The notes under the pieces were generated by a model. That model ran no database searches. It was given only the letters and a program-made list of their open reading frames with translations, and was not told where the DNA came from. Below, one piece after another: positions 8,424 through 50,362 of a stretch of 50,362 nt of DNA; positions within the stretch are counted from its first letter, which is position 1; every line of letters starts with the position of its first letter. This stretch comes from a virus. Made by a program: the position numbers and the translations under genes. The stretch is from UHGV virus genome UHGV-0113347; one strand, written 5' to 3'.

Positions 8424-9641
8424 ATGCCAACTGAATATGCTCGCGACAACCTTGGTCGCTATCAGACTGATGGATTAAGTGCAAAAGACTTTAACAAGGT
8501 CTTCGATCTTATCCGTAAACAGCAGCGTCAGAATCGGCGAAACGCGCGACGTACACTCACCCCAAGGATTATGGGGATGCGTAACCGCGAACTTGAGGCA
8601 TTCCTCAGCCTTGGGAAAAAGAAAGATGGCACCTACTTTACGCCCGAAGATATACGCAGTTTCAACACCTCAAGGCAGGCTCATAAAACCAAATTCAAGA
8701 GCACGGTACCCGGCATTACCTATGCTCAGCTGGTGGCGCAGTCCACCAGCATTGATATAAAACGCGCTAACAACAAGGTTTCTGATGGCACAGGGATCAA
8801 AGCCGCGACATTCCTCGGGCTAAAACACAACCTTGCATTGATATCTGTTAATGCCTCGGATGAGTCGGTCCACCAGCATCACCGTGTCAGAATTCGATTT
8901 GAGGAATGGGATAAAGCCGTTGAGGAAATTGCTGAAGACGGTGCGAAAAAAGCCCGAATCGCTGCCGATCTCTGCAAGGGCCGGGTATCTTTCGACTGTG
9001 ATTGTGGACGCCATCAATACTGGTATCGTTATATGGCCACGGCTGGTAACTATGCTGTCGCGCCGCCAAAAGAGTATGCATTCCCCAAAATCCGCAACCC
9101 TGATCTGACTGGTGTGGCTTGCAAACATGTTTTGCACGCTATGACGCGTTTTCAGTCTCCCACATGGCACAAGGCCATCATTATTGCCCTGGAAAAAGCA
9201 GCTGAACAGGTAGCCTTCGGCGATGACAAGCGGAAGACAACAACCTATTTCAAAGGCGAACTGGCTAAATCGCTCGCGCGCAACCGGACAACAACGACGG
9301 ATCAGGCTAAAGCGGCGCGTGAGTATGAGTTATATCTGAAATCTCAGGATGCATTAGGCAAAAAACTACGCGCCAAAGATAGCGCCACGGACAACGTTCG
9401 CCGGTTGTTAAAAAAAGCTCGCACCACGGCAAACAGGAAGAATGCCGAACTAAAAGCCTCGCGGGTGAGGGAAGCCCAGGCTCGCGCTGAAGCCGACGCT
9501 CTCAAAAAAGCCCTGCAAACGCAGGCGAACAACCTCATAAAGTTTTTCATGAGTCAGGGAATGGACAAGGCCGCTGCCACCGCGCAGGCGCGAAGCATTC
9601 TTGAGACACAAATTAACGAAGCCCGTAAACGGAAAGGATAA
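8424..9641 (+). CDS. hypothetical protein with SWIM-like zinc finger and basic coiled-coil tail
   Basis: CDCGRHQYW...CKHVLHA (CxC...CxH); C-terminal ~110 aa K/R/A-rich. Confidence 0.45.
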   Translation: MPTEYARDNLGRYQTDGLSAKDFNKVFDLIRKQQRQNRRNARRTLTPRIMGMRNRELEAFLSLGKKKDGTYFTPEDIRSFNTSRQAHKTKFKSTVPGITYAQLVAQSTSIDIKRANNKVSDGTGIKAATFLGLKHNLALISVNASDESVHQHHRVRIRFEEWDKAVEEIAEDGAKKARIAADLCKGRVSFDCDCGRHQYWYRYMATAGNYAVAPPKEYAFPKIRNPDLTGVACKHVLHAMTRFQSPTWHKAIIIALEKAAEQVAFGDDKRKTTTYFKGELAKSLARNRTTTTDQAKAAREYELYLKSQDALGKKLRAKDSATDNVRRLLKKARTTANRKNAELKASRVREAQARAEADALKKALQTQANNLIKFFMSQGMDKAAATAQARSILETQINEARKRKG

Positions 9642-12788
<3,147 letters not shown>

Positions 12789-15483: not shown

Positions 15484-15559
15484 TGGTGGCCCCTACCGGA
15501 CTTGAACCGGTGACCGTGCGATTATGAGTCGCCAGCTCTAACCACTGAGCTAAAGGGCC
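15484..15559 (-). tRNA. tRNA, anticodon CAT (Met or lysidine-Ile)
   Basis: 76-nt cloverleaf GGCCCTT..GCTC-AGTGGTTA-GAGC..CTCATAA..GGTTCAAGTCC..AGGGGCC-A-CCA. Confidence 0.8.
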
Positions 15560-17559: not shown

Positions 17560-17635
17560 TGGTGCCGATTAACGGACTCGAACCGCTGACATCCTGCTTA
17601 CAAGGCAGGCGCTCTACCAACTGAGCTAAACCGGC
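17560..17635 (-). tRNA. tRNA-Thr (anticodon TGT)
   Basis: 76-nt cloverleaf GCCGGTT..GCTC-AGTTGGTA-GAGC..CTTGTAA..GGTTCGAGTCC..AATCGGC-A-CCA. Confidence 0.8.
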
Positions 17636-17637
17636 AT

Positions 17638-17713
17638 TGGCGATGGTGGATGGATTTGAACCATCGACCCGTTGATTAACAGTCAACCGCTCTAACCGCT
17701 GAGCTACACCATC
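17638..17713 (-). tRNA. tRNA-Asn (anticodon GTT)
   Basis: 76-nt cloverleaf GATGGTG..GCTC-AGCGGTTA-GAGC..CTGTTAA..GGTTCAAATCC..CACCATC-G-CCA. Confidence 0.8.
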
Positions 17714-24379: not shown

Positions 24380-24434
24380 GATCCAATAATCAGGTCCATA
24401 CAGATCCCAATTAGATCCATATAGATCCCTGATC
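24380..24434. promoter_or_regulatory. cluster of five GATC (Dam) sites in heptamer-like repeats
   Basis: GATC at 24380, 24403, 24414, 24424, 24431, mostly within AGATCCA/AGATCCC heptamers. Confidence 0.65.
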
Positions 24435-24473
24435 GTTGCAGGCCGCGCCACGTCTGGCTTAGAAGTGTATCGC

Positions 24474-24577
24474 GATGTGTGCTGGAGGGAAAACGATGTG
24501 TGCTGGAGGGATAAAAATGTGTGCTGACGGGTTGCTAATGTGTGCTGGCGGGATATAGGATGTGTGCTGACGGGAAA
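24474..24577 (+). repeat. five 19-bp RepA iterons (incC-like, overlapping repA promoter)
   Basis: GATGTGTGCTGGAGGGAAA-type repeats at 24474, 24495, 24516, 24537, 24559 (21-22 bp period). Confidence 0.85.
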
Positions 24578-24633: not shown

Positions 24634-25494
24634 ATGAATCAATCATTTATCTCCGATATTCTTTACGCAGACATTGAAAGTAAGGCAAAAGAACTAACAG
24701 TTAATTCAAACAACACTGTGCAGCCTGTAGCGTTGATGCGCTTGGGGGTATTCGTGCCGAAGCCATCAAAGAGCAAAGGAGAAAGTAAAGAGATTGATGC
24801 CACCAAAGCGTTTTCCCAGCTGGAGATAGCTAAAGCCGAGGGTTACGATGATATTAAAATCACCGGTCCTCGACTCGATATGGATACTGATTTCAAAACG
24901 TGGATCGGTGTCATCTACGCGTTCAGCAAATACGGCTTGTCCTCAAACACCATCCAGTTATCGTTTCAGGAATTCGCTAAAGCCTGTGGTTTCCCCTCAA
25001 AACGTCTGGATGCGAAACTGCGTTTAACCATTCATGAATCACTTGGACGCTTGCGTAACAAGGGTATCGCTTTTAAGCGCGGAAAAGATGCTAAAGGCGG
25101 CTATCAGACTGGTCTGCTGAAGGTCGGGCGTTTTGATGCTGACCTTGATCTGATAGAGCTGGAGGCTGATTCGAAGTTGTGGGAGCTGTTCCAGCTTGAT
25201 TATCGCGTTCTGTTGCAACACCACGCCTTGCGTGCCCTTCCGAAGAAAGAAGCTGCACAAGCCATTTACACTTTCATCGAAAGCCTTCCGCAGAACCCGT
25301 TGCCGCTATCGTTCGCGCGAATCCGTGAGCGCCTGGCTTTGCAGTCAGCTGTTGGCGAGCAAAACCGTATCATTAAGAAAGCGATAGAACAGCTTAAAAC
25401 AATCGGCTATCTCGACTGTTCAATTGAGAAGAAAGGCCGGGAAAGTTTTGTAATCGTCCATTCTCGCAATCCAAAGCTGAAACTCCCCGAATAA
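24634..25494 (+). CDS. repA: plasmid replication initiator RepA
   Basis: 286-aa ORF flanked by iteron arrays; length and context match P1 RepA as I recall. Confidence 0.85.
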   Translation: MNQSFISDILYADIESKAKELTVNSNNTVQPVALMRLGVFVPKPSKSKGESKEIDATKAFSQLEIAKAEGYDDIKITGPRLDMDTDFKTWIGVIYAFSKYGLSSNTIQLSFQEFAKACGFPSKRLDAKLRLTIHESLGRLRNKGIAFKRGKDAKGGYQTGLLKVGRFDADLDLIELEADSKLWELFQLDYRVLLQHHALRALPKKEAAQAIYTFIESLPQNPLPLSFARIRERLALQSAVGEQNRIIKKAIEQLKTIGYLDCSIEKKGRESFVIVHSRNPKLKLPE

Positions 25495-25779
25495 GTGTGT
25501 GCTGGAGGGCAGCTGCATTCAAAAAATGTGTGCTGCCGGGAAGGCTTGTCCAATTTCCTGTTTTTGATGTGCGCTGGAGGGGGACGCCCCGCAGTTTGCC
25601 CAGACTTTCCCTCCAGCACACATCTGTCCATCAGTTTTTCCCTCCAGCGCACATGTAATTCTCTGTCTTTCCCTCCAGCACACATATTTGATACCAGCGA
25701 TCCCTCCACAGCACATAATTCAATGCGACTTCCCTCTATCGCACATCTTAGACTTTTATTCTCCCTCCAGCACACATCG
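25494..25779. repeat. nine RepA iterons downstream of repA (incA-like copy-control locus)
   Basis: Three in one orientation (25494, 25525, 25566), six in the opposite (25607, 25638, 25669, 25700, 25730, 25761). Confidence 0.85.
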
Positions 25780-33983: not shown

Positions 33984-34580
33984 ATGGCTGTGATTCCAAT
34001 GTCGTACTCCCCGGGTACTGTCGCTCGTCGATTTTCGATCCTGGACGGAGTTACCATCCAGGGTGTGCTTTACCAGGTTATATGGGATTCCAAAACCCCA
34101 TTTGCAGCTGTAATAGAGGCTGCGCCTTCTGTTATCGATGGTGATATGCGCCATAAGGTTGTCGCTACTCTTGAACTTCAACGTCGCCCGCAGCTTGAAG
34201 GCGTACTGGTAAGGAAGTTCTGGGAGGATAGCGATGTTGCCCAGATTGAAGGTATCGTGGTTGATGGAACCGTCCGGGATGTCGGTTTAGCTACTTTTGT
34301 TTACGAAACCGTAGCCTCAAAAGCTGGTGTTGTTTTGCTCAGTGATAATGAGCAATACGAAGGTGGAAAAGCTCTTTGGCAACACATCGCCCGTCGCTCT
34401 TCCGAGCTAAAAGTGTTTATCCTCGACACCGATGCCGCTCAGTATTACCCGTTTGACGGCGAACGTGTTTGCTATGACGGGGTAAGTATTCCTGAATCCG
34501 AGATATGGAGTGAACACCCAGATCGAAGTAAGCATGGGGTTGTTCTGGTCGCTGAATCCATAATTGGAAAGGCGGCATAG
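33984..34580 (+). CDS. hypothetical protein (198 aa from internal ATG)
   Basis: ATG at 33984 after AAGGGGG; track start TTG at 33948; AT-rich promoter-like upstream. Confidence 0.4.
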   Translation: MAVIPMSYSPGTVARRFSILDGVTIQGVLYQVIWDSKTPFAAVIEAAPSVIDGDMRHKVVATLELQRRPQLEGVLVRKFWEDSDVAQIEGIVVDGTVRDVGLATFVYETVASKAGVVLLSDNEQYEGGKALWQHIARRSSELKVFILDTDAAQYYPFDGERVCYDGVSIPESEIWSEHPDRSKHGVVLVAESIIGKAA

Positions 34581-34762
34581 CAGTAAAAAATTCCTTGCTC
34601 CTAAAAAGGGGAGAGGGCTAATCTACGTATGCTAAGCATAGATATGGCCTCAGATTAATGTTAAGCGTCTTGCAGGACGCGTAATGTTATCTGGGGCTTT
34701 CTTCTATCTGCTTGTCGGGTAATGCCTGAAGCAGATAGCCTCAAGCACCCGCAACGATTGTA

Positions 34763-38159: not shown

Positions 38160-38214
38160 AGTTACGGCCTCACTAACAGGTTTAACAACCTGCTACCCGC
38201 TGTCAAACAGGTGG

Positions 38215-38295
38215 CAGGACGTGACAGGGTTGACAGACTGGCGTTAGTGAAACCAGCAGGCCGAAGCCTCCCCATCACGCCCCACCATAATTCGG
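38215..38295 (-). ncRNA. c4: candidate c4-like antisense RNA (approximate coordinates)
   Basis: Between operator and icd; contains CCAGTCTGTCAACCCTGTCAC complementary to two TTTGACAGC motifs (38199-38208, 38367-38377) on the same transcript. Confidence 0.3.
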
Positions 38296-38472
38296 GCGTA
38301 ACGCGGTTTACGGACACAAAAATACCGCAATATCGGAAATCTGCGGTTGTCCGCACTAACATTCAGGCTGTCAAACCCGGTCGCAGAATTTGCTAAGACG
38401 GTGGAACTATAAGCCTGAACGATTAAAAGGTCAATATGATGCGAAAAGATAGCATTCGCGACTTAAAAATAC

Positions 38473-47379: not shown

Positions 47380-48215
47380 TGCAGCGTTCCTGGTTTAATA
47401 ACCGGCTTACATCAGCTAAGCAAAAGTCATTACTTTATAAATCATTGGCTGATTTGGTTCAGTCAATGATGGACACCTTTGTTGACCCATGGTTGGAGCG
47501 AATTACCAACCGGAAGTCTATTTTCTCCATGAGCAAGGAGGATCTGGAGACTAGGACAAATGAACTTGGCCAGTTTTTTACTATCAGAACGTCGAATTCA
47601 TCTTCCGTTCCGATGTTGTTACAACAGCGGTTTGATGAGATCCATTTTAAGGGTACTGAACGCCCTATAAACCAGACAATTTATCGCGAATTTAACGGTA
47701 TATCGGTTTTATGGGATCCCATATATGCTCCGGTGGACTTTGAACGTCATCCCTATGGCACGGTCCTGATTCCAGAAAGCACACTGGAAACCACCGGCGG
47801 CACATTCGGCGAGATGTTTCTGACTTCCAGAGGAATGATCAGTATTCCCATAAACGACTTGGCCCGGACAATGGGTATTACTGGAACGATAGATCAGTCC
47901 GCAATTACAGAAGAAATTCTCAGAAAGTTTAATCAGTTCGTAAAGCCTCTACTGCCACTGCATATAGTGTTTGATGGGCTTACGCTCTATTTGTCGGTTG
48001 TTGTAAATGAACAGGCCGACATGATCACTTTGAATGAGATTTCTGATACCGAAAAAGCATTCTGCTGGTTTGAAACTTCGGATACAACTTCGCTTACTGA
48101 AGTTACGTCGATTAACGCCCCGATCACTGCAACGCCGGGCGGCACTATTGTGAAAGCAACGCCTACGTTTGATCGCACCCGCGCAGATGATTTGCTGTTG
48201 GATAGCGATGCGTGA
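47376..48215 (+). CDS. baseplate/tail-fibre attachment protein (gpI-like by position)
   Basis: 279 aa, start overlaps upstream stop. Confidence 0.35.
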   Translation: MMQRSWFNNRLTSAKQKSLLYKSLADLVQSMMDTFVDPWLERITNRKSIFSMSKEDLETRTNELGQFFTIRTSNSSSVPMLLQQRFDEIHFKGTERPINQTIYREFNGISVLWDPIYAPVDFERHPYGTVLIPESTLETTGGTFGEMFLTSRGMISIPINDLARTMGITGTIDQSAITEEILRKFNQFVKPLLPLHIVFDGLTLYLSVVVNEQADMITLNEISDTEKAFCWFETSDTTSLTEVTSINAPITATPGGTIVKATPTFDRTRADDLLLDSDA

Positions 48216-48293
48216 CAATCACCCCGTCCGCAGGGCGGGGTGACAAGTTACTTATCTTACAATGAGGCTTCACAACATTGATTAGGGAAAATC

Positions 48294-48728
48294 ATGTCTG
48301 ACGTCTCAACAAACCTCTATAAGAGTCAGTTGTTGGACTATTACTATCAGCGGCGCGCTGAATCGTCCATTAACAAAGGCTCTCGATTTTTAATCAGCAA
48401 GGCCGTTTTCGGTACCAGTTCACTGGTTACTAAGAAAGGAGATGGCACTTATGAGATTGGAGAACTGCCAAAGGCTTTCGATCTGGCAGAACTGACCAGT
48501 CAATTTTGCACCATCAACCTCGTCCCAACCTACTCAGGCGGGATAATTACTGTCCGAATGGACCTTGATCAAAGTCAGTTGCAGGAAGGGAAAAACTACC
48601 CATTCAACACTCTGGTTGTTCTGGATAACGAGAATAAGCCAATCGCCATTATTTGTGTCCAAGAAGACTCGCTGTATGTGGGCAAAACATATACCGCAGT
48701 TATGGCCATAAACTCGACTACAGCATAA
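48294..48728 (+). CDS. small tail protein upstream of tail fibre (144 aa)
   Basis: ORF with RBS directly preceding the tail-fibre gene. Confidence 0.35.
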   Translation: MSDVSTNLYKSQLLDYYYQRRAESSINKGSRFLISKAVFGTSSLVTKKGDGTYEIGELPKAFDLAELTSQFCTINLVPTYSGGIITVRMDLDQSQLQEGKNYPFNTLVVLDNENKPIAIICVQEDSLYVGKTYTAVMAINSTTA

Positions 48729-48739
48729 GGATATGCTTG

Positions 48740-50221
48740 ATGAATGACGTTACAGTTGTTACATCGGTTACTTACCCATCACCCGAGTCGTTGGCTCTGG
48801 TGGCTGATGTGCAATACCACGAACCATATCTGTCAGCCGCTCTAAACCGAAAATTCAGGGGAATTGTTGACCCGGGATTTTATGCTGGTTTCTTGCCTAA
48901 GCCTGGCGGTGGAATGAACCTGTTAATCACCTCAGTGGATGGTGATAAAACCGCTGGCGCGGCGTCAGTGAATATTGGTGAATTCTACCAGGTAACTATT
49001 CAGCAGCGTAAGGATATTTCTCTTGCACTTAGCGCAGGTAAGAAATATGCAATTGTGCTGAAGGGAAGATACCTCCTTGGAGAAGATTCTTATCAGGTTA
49101 ATACCGCGTCACATATTCATGCGGCTGAATTTGTTGCCAGAACCTATACCGATTCATATCAGTTAGGAGATGGGGAACTGCTTGTTTGTACGGTGAATAT
49201 CCCTGCTGGCGTATCTGCTATTACTCAGGAAATGATAGATGTATCCGACCGCATCGATCTCACGATAGGCATTGAAATTTCCGACTCTGTAACCAGTACC
49301 AGAAGTGATGTCGCTGCAAGTTCGCTGGCAGTTAAAAAAGCCTACGATCTGGCGAAAAGCAAGTATACGGCGCAGGATGCAAGCACAACGCAAAAGGGAT
49401 TAGTTCAGCTCAGCAGTGCTACTAACAGCACGTCTGAAGTGCTGGCCGCCACACCGAAAGCTGTCAAGGCTGCATATGACCTGGCTAACGGGAAGTATAC
49501 AGCCCAGGATGCAACCACGGCTCAAAAAGGGATAGTCCAACTCAGCAGTGCTACCAATAGCACGTCCGAAGTGCTGGCCGCCACACCGAAAGCTGTCAAG
49601 GCTGCATATGATTTGGCTAATGGAAAGCAAGCGGCAGACGCTACGCTCACTGCTCTAGCGGCACTAGCTACAGCAGCAGATAAACTCCCTTATTTCACAG
49701 GTGTTGATCGTGCCGCGTTAACTGCATTGACAAGTGTTGGACGCGCCATTCTTGGTAAGACCAGTATTCAGAGCGTTCTTGATTACCTTGGTTTGGGGGA
49801 AGGCTCTGCACTGCCTGTTGGTGTGCCCGTTCCGTGGCCCTTAGAAACACCACCAACTGGCTGGCTAAAATGCAATGGTGCAGCATTTTCTTCTGAAATG
49901 TATCCCAAACTGGCAAAAGCCTACCCCACCAATAAATTGCCGGATTTACGCGGTGAATTTATCCGTGGCTGGGATGATGGGCGCGGGATTGATGCGGGAC
50001 GTACCCTGCTTTCAGGGCAGGATGGTACAAGTTTTTCTCATTACGGAGGTAATTTCGACATTGGGTCTGGTCATTCAATCAATAACTATGACCAAATTGT
50101 TTCTAACCAACCAGGATTTTCCCGTTTTTCATTTGCAGGGCCTTCACGAGGTGATGGGGTTAATTATGTAACCATTCGTCCTCGTAACATTGCGTTTAAT
50201 TATATCGTAAGGGCGGCATGA
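48740..50221 (+). CDS. tail fibre protein with tandem 44-aa repeats and phage tail-collar-type C-terminal domain
   Basis: ATG at 48740 after AAGGA; repeats AYDLANGKYTAQDA..QKG.VQLSSATNSTSEVLAATPKAVKA; C-terminal LPVGVPVPWP...GWLKCNGAAFSS..YP.LA. Confidence 0.75.
   Translation: MNDVTVVTSVTYPSPESLALVADVQYHEPYLSAALNRKFRGIVDPGFYAGFLPKPGGGMNLLITSVDGDKTAGAASVNIGEFYQVTIQQRKDISLALSAGKKYAIVLKGRYLLGEDSYQVNTASHIHAAEFVARTYTDSYQLGDGELLVCTVNIPAGVSAITQEMIDVSDRIDLTIGIEISDSVTSTRSDVAASSLAVKKAYDLAKSKYTAQDASTTQKGLVQLSSATNSTSEVLAATPKAVKAAYDLANGKYTAQDATTAQKGIVQLSSATNSTSEVLAATPKAVKAAYDLANGKQAADATLTALAALATAADKLPYFTGVDRAALTALTSVGRAILGKTSIQSVLDYLGLGEGSALPVGVPVPWPLETPPTGWLKCNGAAFSSEMYPKLAKAYPTNKLPDLRGEFIRGWDDGRGIDAGRTLLSGQDGTSFSHYGGNFDIGSGHSINNYDQIVSNQPGFSRFSFAGPSRGDGVNYVTIRPRNIAFNYIVRAA
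49337..49630 (+). repeat. in-frame 132-bp tandem repeat (~2.3 copies) inside tail-fibre gene
   Basis: gctgtcaaggctgcatatga at 49460 and 49592; diverged first copy from ~49337. Confidence 0.7.
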
Positions 50222-50362
50222 AAACGTTGGTTTAGGAGAAGGCTCGGCGCTGCCCGTTGGTGTACCTGTTCCATGGCCCTCAGCCACACCTCCAACGGGG
50301 TGGCTGAAATGCAATGGTGCAGCATTTTCTTCTGAAAAGTACCCAAATCTGGCAAAGGTTTA
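50211..50362 (+). other. start-less second copy of the tail-fibre receptor-domain block (alternative C-terminal module, truncated by window end)
   Basis: 50226-50362 is ~85% identical to 49793-49925 with mostly synonymous differences; encodes GLGEGSALPVGVPVPWPSATPPTGWLKCNGAAFSSEKYPNLAKV in the +1 frame, open only from the TAA at 50208, with no ATG/GTG/TTG. Confidence 0.5.

Follow-up and report, generated by a model that had tools for sequence, protein, structure and literature searches.

The repeat behind a P1-like tail-fibre gene very probably heads a silent cassette of a Min-type multiple-inversion region

The window, which is the whole analysed stretch of 50,362 nucleotides of the virus genome UHGV-0113347, very probably ends inside a multiple-inversion region of the Min type (p15B) belonging to a P1-like phage-plasmid. 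The repeated sequence behind the tail-fibre gene is the head of the first silent cassette, which would be fused to the gene by two successive inversions and not by deletion or recoding. The system is of an already known kind. An earlier note on this DNA had proposed that the downstream copy is coding and could be expressed solely as a fusion, in a host-range cassette switch. This part of its reading is supported, with the constant 5' part of the fibre gene as the fusion partner.

The tail-fibre genes of the window are encoded on the plus strand. The gene R (48294–48728), the first of the P1 late tail-fibre operon R-S, is an ORF of 144 residues with 92–97% nucleotide identity to R of P1 and P7. 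In the annotation of P1, the late promoter LPs lies upstream of this gene. The gene S (48740–50221) corresponds to the tail-fibre gene S of P1, and its product carries a Collar domain at residues 361–408 in addition to three Phage_fiber_2 repeats, in agreement with the earlier identification of the upstream gene as a tail-fibre gene. The constant 5' part of S, named Sc, extends to the crossover core (48740–49789) and is 92–97% identical to S genes of the P1, P7 and p15B type. Sc contains the three fibre repeats and a 132-bp tandem duplication at 49340–49603. The expressed variable cassette, of type F (49790–50221), is in frame with Sc, encodes 143 residues followed by a TGA stop codon, and has a variable middle between a conserved entry block and the likewise conserved terminus RPRNIAFNYIVRAA. 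The window is P1-like and matches the plasmid pMCR_SCKP-LL83 (L003) over positions 47400–50362 at 94.4%. It is a P1-type phage-plasmid whose sequence stops 134 nt into its second cassette.

The direct repeat claimed behind the tail-fibre gene is real. Positions 49780–49917 and 50219–50356 are 84% identical over 138 nt without gaps, and the second copy is cut off by the end of the window at 50362. The similarity starts sharply at 49780 and 50219, about 13 nt earlier than had been noted, and the 80 nt to the left match at a random level. The motif ACSTTGGTTTRGGRGAAGG, common to the heads of both copies, occurs twice in the window compared to 0.00 occurrences expected from 100 shuffles, and the longest exact run shared by the copies is 31 nt. 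Starting at GGT (49790 in one copy, 50229 in the other), the comparison covers 132 nt (44 codons). The 22 differences between the copies are located in the third (18) and second (4) codon positions, with none in the first, and of the 20 codons that differ, 15 do so synonymously. The resulting dS is 0.73 and dN 0.059, which gives a dN/dS of 0.08 (Nei-Gojobori, 44 codons). The argument that mostly synonymous differences mark the downstream copy as coding is supported, and both peptides quoted in support of it were reproduced exactly. The frame of the downstream copy reads TAA (50208–50210, plus strand) GGG CGG CAT GAA AAC GTT and continues with GGT, so that the TAA closes it 18 nt ahead of the first cassette codon, as previously described. 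This frame contains neither ATG, GTG nor TTG between 50211 and 50362; the start of an independent downstream gene, which would have spoken against the fusion reading, is likewise missing from the first 44 codons. The sequence TAA GGG CGG CAT ... also precedes silent cassettes in relatives. No promoter or terminator of its own was found between S and the silent cassette: the region 48100–50362 contains no terminator-like sites and one promoter-like match, compared to 3.3 expected.

At the head of each repeat copy is a crossover site of 26 bp with the core TT, of the type used by the Gin/Cin/Hin/Pin/Min invertase family. Site 1, TTCTTGATTACC TT GGTTTGGGGGAA, is located at the Sc/Sv junction (49776–49801, plus strand; core 49788–49789). 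Site 2, GGCATGAAAACG TT GGTTTAGGAGAA (50215–50240; core 50227–50228), has the same plus orientation, and its left half contains the TGA stop codon of S (50219–50221). It heads the start-less silent cassette B, of which the first 134 nt, or 44 codons and two bases, are present (50229–50362, plus strand) before the window ends. Only these two sites, both direct, are visible in the window, which up to its end at 50362 shows neither a site of opposite orientation nor an invertase gene. Like the sites of the Din family, they are 26-bp imperfect palindromes with a 2-bp core, positioned at the junction of the constant and variable parts of a fibre. The architecture of site 1 is the same as that of P1 cixR, TTATCCAATACC TT GGTTTAAGAGAA (cixL and cixR were taken from the P1 annotation). 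Site 1 is also a close match to the site TCCTCAATTACC TT GGTTTAGGAGAA of the EC958 prophage Phi2, at which inversion was observed (PMC4134206), and the window sites fit the published consensus and the observed sites (PMC4134206, Table 3). The earlier note had set the repeat apart from the inversion switches of P1 and Mu. That distinction is not supported: both copies begin with a site of the type used by P1 Cin, Mu Gin, and p15B Min.

The silent cassettes of nine related arrays are, with few exceptions, headed by a site of the general form ..CAT[A/G]AAAACG TT GGTTT[A/G]GG[G/A]GAA. In these arrays 65 sites were found, 64 of them full-length, and all 64 have the core TT. Position 6 of the full-length sites is occupied by A in 35 cases, G in 21, and T in 8, and the stop codon equivalent to that in site 2 is TAA in most sites and TGA in others. 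In several records, the similarity to the window begins at query positions 136–139, which correspond to 49785–49788 and are located on the crossover site.

Eight P1-type relatives that share the junction or a cassette with the window have arrays that run on to five to nine sites. Among all nine related arrays the number of sites ranges from three to nine, and in each of them all plus sites come before all minus sites, which is an ordering that an inversion-only system preserves. Each site in the arrays heads a start-less fibre tip, with the plus sites near S and the minus sites near a gene of a serine invertase. Cassettes on the opposite strand are present in all eight P1-type relatives examined, and a Cin-like serine invertase gene is located at the far end of the array in all seven whose records reach there. 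The invertase of the relative L005 has a Resolvase (PF00239) and an HTH_7 (PF02796) domain and shares 74% identity with P1 Cin. The enhancer annotated within P1 cin has an aligned counterpart in the 5' end of the invertase gene of three relatives. NCBIfam provided no specific equivalog for the recombinase, fibre, or chaperone. When the segments of the L002 array are designated A B C D E F G H, the L003 array reads A B −G −F −H C D E, with the segments 99–100% identical, and the two arrays are two inversions apart, each between a plus and a minus site. The central segments of L004 and L005 are in opposite orientations. Isomers that differ by inversions between opposed sites are thus found among the relatives (L002 and L003), and also in E. 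coli E2348/69. The comparison of related genomes that the earlier note had called for bears out the role of the downstream copy as a cassette, whereas the opposite-strand cassettes and the invertase found there speak against the deletion mechanism that it had put forward.

The protein encoded by cassette F is 100% identical to those of silent cassettes in L002 (minus strand), L003, and L006, and it is expressed in L005. The head of cassette B matches that of the L006 cassette at 7445 with 100% identity and other cassette heads with 95–99%; the L006 cassette encodes 153 residues and is followed by a tfa gene. The 134 nt do not fix the type of cassette B, because variants of the entry block (LET/SAT and MYPKLAKA/KYPNLAKV) are reassorted among cassette bodies. 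Only one cassette in the arrays of relatives has the tfa chaperone gene after it. Most of the array cassettes are full-length ORFs. L004 contains decayed cassettes of 62–126 residues with frameshifts, and arrays can be partly dead. Inversion alone cannot account for a cassette number that varies among the relatives (three to nine sites), which indicates that in the course of evolution cassettes are deleted or duplicated as well. The closest record for Sc in the phage collection, vB_EcoM-813R1 (L001), was left out of the comparison: its cassettes belong to a different family, it contains no site matching the motif with up to three mismatches, and the locus consists of fibre fragments and a split hin-like gene.

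The E. coli strains E2348/69 and EC958 have nearly the same sites, and inversion has been directly observed at them. The E2348/69 locus (L008, NC_011601.1) is 93% identical to window positions 49664–50362, and it is composed of a fibre with cassette F, a direct silent cassette, an inverted cassette with tfa, and an invertase gene. The 26-mer of site 1 is identical to an experimentally recombining site of E2348/69. The inversions in this strain were mapped at 1891695–1893703 and 1892127–1893703, and four coexisting isomers with three alternative C-termini were confirmed by PCR (PMC4272514). The E2348/69 equivalent of site 2 (about position 1892134 of NC_011601.1) is a mapped inversion end point.

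The following mechanism of cassette exchange is very probable for the window. Sc, ending at 49789, is joined at the 26-bp site to one member of a set of exchangeable 3' cassettes, each about 143–168 codons long, which encode the Collar-domain tip of the fibre. The remaining cassettes would be located downstream, each headed by a site and lacking a start codon, with those oriented as S near S and those of opposite orientation near the invertase gene. A serine invertase of the Cin/Min family would recombine only opposed sites, at the central TT, so that each inversion would flip a block of cassettes and join a different cassette to Sc. Cassette B is oriented as S, and it would therefore be unreachable in one step: a first inversion would turn it, and a second would fuse it to Sc. 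Every cassette would then be expressed in some members of the population and all would be under purifying selection, which would account for the mostly synonymous differences between the entry blocks. We infer that opposed sites and an invertase gene are present in the downstream DNA of the window's genome, and the exchange of cassettes presumably changes the host range.

The Min system of plasmid p15B from E. coli 15T− was described by Sandmeier, Iida, Arber and co-workers in 1990–1992 (cited in PMC6109161, PMC5786510 and PMC5903667). According to these secondary citations, it shares with the window the P1-type backbone and an Sc joined at a 26-bp site to a 3' cassette, and with the arrays of the relatives several start-less cassettes in both orientations and a serine invertase gene adjoining the array. 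The window differs in that it contains the left edge alone, in which a pair of sites of equal orientation is accompanied by one full cassette and the first 134 nt of another. There are six crossover sites in p15B and five to nine in the relatives analysed here. The homology of the window to p15B min is indirect, via L003: the protein of cassette F is 100% identical to that of the L003 cassette at 11822, and the L003 array is reported to be 99% identical to p15B min with 92% coverage (PMC5786510).

The Cin/C-segment system of P1 and the Gin/G-segment system of Mu have the invertase family of the relatives and the same outcome, alternative fibre tips, and P1 cixR has the same site architecture at the Sc/Sv junction (..ACC TT GGTTTAAGAGAA). 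However, P1 and Mu have two sites and one invertible segment with two alternatives of about 1.6 kb, each with a chaperone, U or U', whereas the system of the window type has many short cassettes (about 0.44–0.51 kb), some of them direct, with tfa after one only. The three-site "shufflon" of the P2-like prophage of EPEC E2348/69 has the same site 1 and a direct silent cassette after an F-type cassette (PMC4272514), and the Phi2 prophage of EC958 has almost identical site sequences (PMC4134206). Both are chromosomal P2-like prophages with two or three sites, whereas the window is of the P1 type and its relatives have up to nine. The R64 shufflon (Rci) and the Rin shufflon of a Bifidobacterium prophage also combine a constant 5' part with start-less bidirectional 3' cassettes and inversion between opposed sites only. 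They differ in their tyrosine recombinases and short asymmetric sites (the 11-bp rix in Rin and sfx in R64), and the target in R64 is the pilus adhesin PilV. Membership in the R64-type shufflons was rejected, since the enzyme of the relatives is a serine recombinase (PF00239, PF02796) and the sites are 26-bp imperfect palindromes. On the evidence of its sites and of the relatives' enzymes, the window system is one that works like a shufflon, outside the R64 and Rin families.

The earlier note favoured deletion as the switch, in which homologous or invertase-mediated loss of cassette F fuses cassette B to Sc. The 31-nt exact run is long enough for a rare RecA-dependent exchange, the arrays of relatives vary in cassette number (three to nine sites), and the reassortment of entry blocks implies homologous exchange within the block over evolutionary time. 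However, deletion is irreversible and costs a cassette, and when several sites coexist, inversion at opposed sites is preferred over deletion between same-oriented ones (PMC11850598). All relatives have opposed sites, and an invertase gene is found wherever the record reaches; the direct site of E2348/69 takes part in inversions, and four isomers coexist there. The edge of the homology is located exactly on the crossover site, which would be needless for a purely homologous mechanism. Deletion as the switch is very unlikely. It is also very unlikely that the window's own array has no opposed sites or working invertase, so that cassette B can be reached only by a rare one-way deletion; if this were true, the locus would be a one-way direct-repeat host-range switch, as first proposed. 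Homologous exchange in the entry block is better supported as a process that reassorts variants and alters the cassette number over evolutionary time. We regard it as highly improbable that the downstream copy is a fossil, the dead 3' end of an old tip left behind after horizontal exchange brought in a new tip by recombination at the conserved block; the synonymous pattern would then reflect only selection in another phage in the past. Relics of this sort are known, given the mosaic nature of tail-fibre genes, the dN/dS of two alleles cannot distinguish past from present selection, and the L004 cassettes demonstrate that decay is possible. Nevertheless, the crossover site in front of the copy is intact and of a type conserved in all 64 full-length sites, the same cassettes are silent in some records and expressed in others, most array cassettes are full-length, and inversion was seen experimentally at the equivalent site.

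The cassettes might instead be independent small genes whose translation begins at a non-canonical codon some 21 nt inside the cassette. The "phage tail protein" CDSs of RefSeq and PLSDB start 21 nt past the site (8601–9011 versus 8580 in L005), the matching position in the window is a CTG at 50250, and site 2 contains AGGAG. However, AGGAG is not conserved, most sites having GGGGA, and the 44 available codons lack any of the usual starts. A fragment without Sc would miss the constant fibre-repeat region, and the authors of the EC958 study judged such small cassette calls to be annotation artefacts of alternate 3' fragments (PMC4134206). This explanation has scarcely any probability. Recoding at the fibre stop codon, which the earlier note had also suggested, would carry S into cassette B by a +1 frameshift or readthrough. 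The frame of cassette B is +1 relative to S, open from 50211, and overlaps the last four codons of S. Nevertheless, readthrough of the TGA would keep the wrong frame, and GCA-TGA offers no slippery re-pairing codon. The variation of TAA and TGA among the sites implies that no signal is conserved beyond the half-site, the crossover site fully explains the conserved sequence, and the product would have two tandem tips. The suggestion thus finds no backing and is extremely improbable. A direct repeat of about 135 bp just 3' of a fibre gene superficially resembles the diversity-generating retroelement of BPP-1, with the downstream copy as the template repeat and the in-gene copy as the variable repeat. 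The probability of this is negligible, and membership in this class is refuted by the mismatch spectrum: the bases of the downstream copy at the mismatches (A 6, G 6, C 5, T 5) are not adenine-specific, and 18 of the 22 mismatches are in the third codon position, most of them synonymous. Furthermore, the in-gene copy is located away from the 3' end of the gene, and no reverse transcriptase is annotated in the loci of the relatives.

The reading of the repeat as part of a Min-type array has little discovery value, as the switching of fibre tips by multiple inversions goes back to the studies of p15B Min in 1990–1992. It explains why automatic annotation of P1-like phage-plasmids shows rows of small "phage tail protein" genes behind S, and why assemblies tend to break or get linearised at this region. 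It also shows that the fibre tip now expressed by the element is of type F. The cassette family is widespread, with matches in 181 plasmid records and in 868 of 5,426 complete E. coli genomes, and it is therefore relevant to the prediction of host range for P1-like elements with resistance genes, mcr-1 being one example (PMC5786510).

The 3′ end of the window contains two direct repeats, 49780-49917 and 50219-50356, which are 84% identical over 138 nt in an ungapped alignment. Left of 49780 and 50219, the similarity between the two regions drops to random level. The second copy reaches the end of the window, and its full length is thus hidden. The first copy belongs to P1 gene S (48740-50221), which encodes three Phage_fiber_2 repeats and a Collar domain (residues 361-408). 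The comparable coding stretch starts at the GGT codons 49790 and 50229 and is 132 nt long; eighteen of its 22 differences are at third codon positions. The changes affect 20 codons, 15 of them synonymously, and dN/dS amounts to 0.08. A TAA at 50208-50210 closes the reading frame of the second copy, in which no ATG, GTG or TTG follows up to 50362. The earlier note was therefore correct in describing a direct repeat whose downstream copy is coding, in a closed frame without a canonical start.

Each repeat copy opens with a 26-bp imperfect palindrome, TTCTTGATTACC TT GGTTTGGGGGAA at 49776-49801 (site 1) and GGCATGAAAACG TT GGTTTAGGAGAA at 50215-50240 (site 2). The motif common to both occurs nowhere else in 50 kb, and the expected number is zero. 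Both palindromes are crossover sites of the invertase family that comprises Gin, Cin, Hin, Pin and Min. The annotated cixR of P1, which reads TTATCCAATACC TT GGTTTAAGAGAA on the S strand, has the same position at the junction of the constant (Sc) and variable (Sv) parts of gene S. An inversion detected in PacBio reads of EC958 ends at TCCTCAATTACC TT GGTTTAGGAGAA and GAGAGATAAACG TT GGTTTGGGGGAA (PMC4134206), and a consensus of the family sites from Mu, P1, e14, p15B and S. boydii is given in the same paper. The stop codon of S falls within the left half of site 2, and each cassette begins with the GGT of GLGEG..., which is also the opening triplet of the right half-site. Among 65 sites collected from arrays, 64 were at full length; these 64 all share the core TT, and most of their right half-site is invariant as well.

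The window ends 134 nt into the second cassette (cassette B, from 50229), and the array was inferred via relatives with the same junction. The arrangement of Sc, the currently expressed cassette F (49790-50221) and a next cassette was found in plasmid records with up to 99.0% identity. Eight P1-type relatives (L002-L006, L009-L011) contain 5-9 sites after S with a cassette behind each; plus-oriented sites adjoin S, and minus-oriented sites are at the far end. A recombinase gene is located behind the last site in all seven P1-type relatives whose record extends there. The L005 recombinase combines Resolvase and HTH_7 domains and shares 74% identity with P1 Cin; the inversion enhancer annotated in P1 aligns with the 5′ end of the recombinase gene of three relatives. 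All plus sites precede the minus sites in nine of nine arrays, including that of Escherichia coli E2348/69, with three to nine sites per array. This order is kept by an inversion-only process, whereas random duplication would not keep it. The linear record of L006 (NZ_CP139854.1) terminates within its cassette array, and the window likewise ends within the repeated entry block; assemblies may break or become linearised in this repeat-rich, heterogeneous region.

The arrays were split at the crossover points and the segments classified. The segment order is A B C D E F G H in L002 and A B -G -F -H C D E in L003 (plasmid pMCR_SCKP-LL83), with 99-100% identity between segments. A breadth-first search permitting only inversions between plus and minus sites converts one order to the other in two inversions. 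The 143-residue protein of cassette F is identical to silent cassettes in L002 (minus strand), L003 and L006, and is expressed in L005. In several records, the similarity starts at query position 136-139, which corresponds to 49785-49788 of the window, on site 1. The paper on the L003 plasmid (PMC5786510) describes its ~5-kb segment as matching min, the multiple inversion region of p15B, at 99% identity and 92% coverage, and Min is presented in PMC6109161 as a serine-recombinase shufflon yielding variable tail fibres.

The E2348/69 chromosome is 93% identical to window 49664-50362 at a locus (L008) that is part of a P2-like prophage. The locus contains the fibre constant part, site 1 (identical 26-mer), an F-type cassette, direct site 2, a 159-residue silent cassette, an inverted 153-residue cassette with tfa, and a recombinase gene. 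Goldberg et al. reported two overlapping inversions in this strain (NC_011601.1, 1891695-1893703 and 1892127-1893703); four PCR-confirmed isomers coexist, and one protein has three alternative C-termini (PMC4272514). The end points of these inversions match sites 1, 2 and 3 of the locus within a few bases. In E2348/69 the directly repeated site therefore does recombine, its partner being the opposed site rather than site 1.

Based on the site geometry, a switch to cassette B can be proposed. The starting order would be +a +b, where a is the F segment and b is the central segment headed by cassette B. Recombination of site 2 with an opposed site would invert b alone, resulting in +a -b. Subsequent recombination of site 1 with the same opposed site would invert both segments to +b -a and place B in frame behind Sc. 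Expression of an S-oriented cassette would thus take two inversions and that of an opposed cassette a single one, which is consistent with the four isomers and three termini in E2348/69. For the window's own genome, where the opposed sites and the invertase gene would lie beyond 50362, we infer the two-step inversion.

The earlier note had proposed that the second copy is expressed by deletion between the direct repeats or by recoding at the S stop codon. Deletion could in principle fuse B to Sc, since the two copies share an exact run of 31 nt, and it probably contributes to array evolution. As a switch, however, it would be irreversible, and bacterial inversion systems with several coexisting sites prefer inversion between opposed sites over deletion between sites of the same orientation (PMC11850598). 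Opposed sites are present in all relatives, the invertase is present in those whose records reach far enough, and the E2348/69 experiments found inversions; the deletion switch is not borne out. Recoding is not supported either, because cassette B is read in frame +1, a slippery codon is absent, and the stop at equivalent sites is mostly TAA and in others TGA. It is unlikely that the second copy is a dead relic, as the site is conserved, intact cassettes exist, and cassette F is identical in silent and expressed states. RefSeq annotates some silent cassettes of L004, L005 and L009-L011 as independent "phage tail protein" genes. The start codon of these coding sequences, 21 nt past the crossover site, is non-canonical, other silent cassettes in the same annotations are listed as pseudogenes "missing N-terminus", and the EC958 authors class such calls as annotation artefacts (PMC4134206). 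The separate calls are an artefact of start-less 3′ gene segments. A DGR was ruled out by the mismatch spectrum.

All cassettes have in common about 65 N-terminal residues, GLGEGSALPVGVPVPWP..TPPTGWLKCNGAAFSSE.YP.LAK.YPT.KLPDLRGEFIRGWDDGRG, which form the entry block and are the first part of the Collar domain, and a C-terminal ..RPRN[IV]AFNYIVRA. end. The middle 60-90 residues are unrelated across cassette types. Each cassette needs the entry block whenever it is expressed, which explains why the differences are mostly synonymous. The entry variants LET/SAT and MYPKLAKA/KYPNLAKV occur in all four combinations (L002-L006, L008-L011; window 49790-49921 and 50229-50362), and one cassette body bears different variants in different plasmid records. 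Site-specific exchange at the core cannot reassort these variants, and therefore homologous recombination or gene conversion within the ~200-bp block also acts. The 134 nt of cassette B are 100% identical to the head of a 153-residue cassette of L006, which is followed by tfa. Since entry blocks are interchangeable, this match is not enough to assign cassette B to a type. The tail-fibre assembly gene (Caudo_TAP; L005 9525-10136, minus strand; L004 10008-10619, plus strand; L008 6052-6663, minus strand) is located behind only one cassette type (153 residues, GWLTGSHYHNIRSW...), and the remaining types lack a dedicated chaperone gene. Where type F is expressed, tfa is on the opposite strand in some isomers, such as L005. 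The most similar full-length junction, that of L004 (99.0%), has an F segment one nucleotide shorter (438 versus 439 nt), so that the expressed cassette is frameshifted (8141-8521), and three more cassettes, at 8579, 11640 and 12094, are cut down to 62-104 residues. These changes are either array decay or sequencing error.

The array that begins in the window very probably represents the P1/Mu tail-fibre inversion switch in its p15B Min form. The invertase family seen in the relatives, the site architecture and the position in gene S are shared with P1 and Mu, contrary to the earlier claim of a switch unlike theirs; the difference is that P1 and Mu have one invertible segment, whereas the Min form has many short cassettes. 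The R64 and Rin shufflons work in a similar way but use tyrosine recombinases, and the window system does not belong to those families. Matches to the cassette family were found in 181 plasmid records and in 868 of 5,426 complete E. coli genomes; the system is already known and widespread.

The window is recognisable from its sequence as a P1-type phage-plasmid. Its R and S genes are 92-97% identical to those of P1 and P7. Three tRNA genes with anticodons CAT, TGT and GTT (15484-15559, 17560-17713, minus strand) and the C4 antisense RNA of immI adjoining its a1/b1 target (38207-38412, minus strand) mark the tRNA and immunity regions of P1 and thereby confirm a P1-type backbone. A 286-residue reading frame (24634-25494), possibly a rep gene, lies between arrays of 21-bp and 31-bp repeats (24388-24575 and 25601-25685) that resemble replicon iterons. 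A match in Rfam to the antitoxin RNA sok (34576-34750, minus strand; 89.7 bits, gathering score 59) points to an addiction module of the hok/sok type on the P1-like backbone. Sc carries a 132-bp tandem duplication at 49340-49603, or 49361-49627 by a second delimitation, with 84-87% identity, which codes for Phage_fiber_2 repeats. Gene S is 1482 nt long in the window and L003, and 1950-2925 nt long in L004, L005, L006, L009, L010 and L011, which suggests variation of the repeat number in the fibre shaft.
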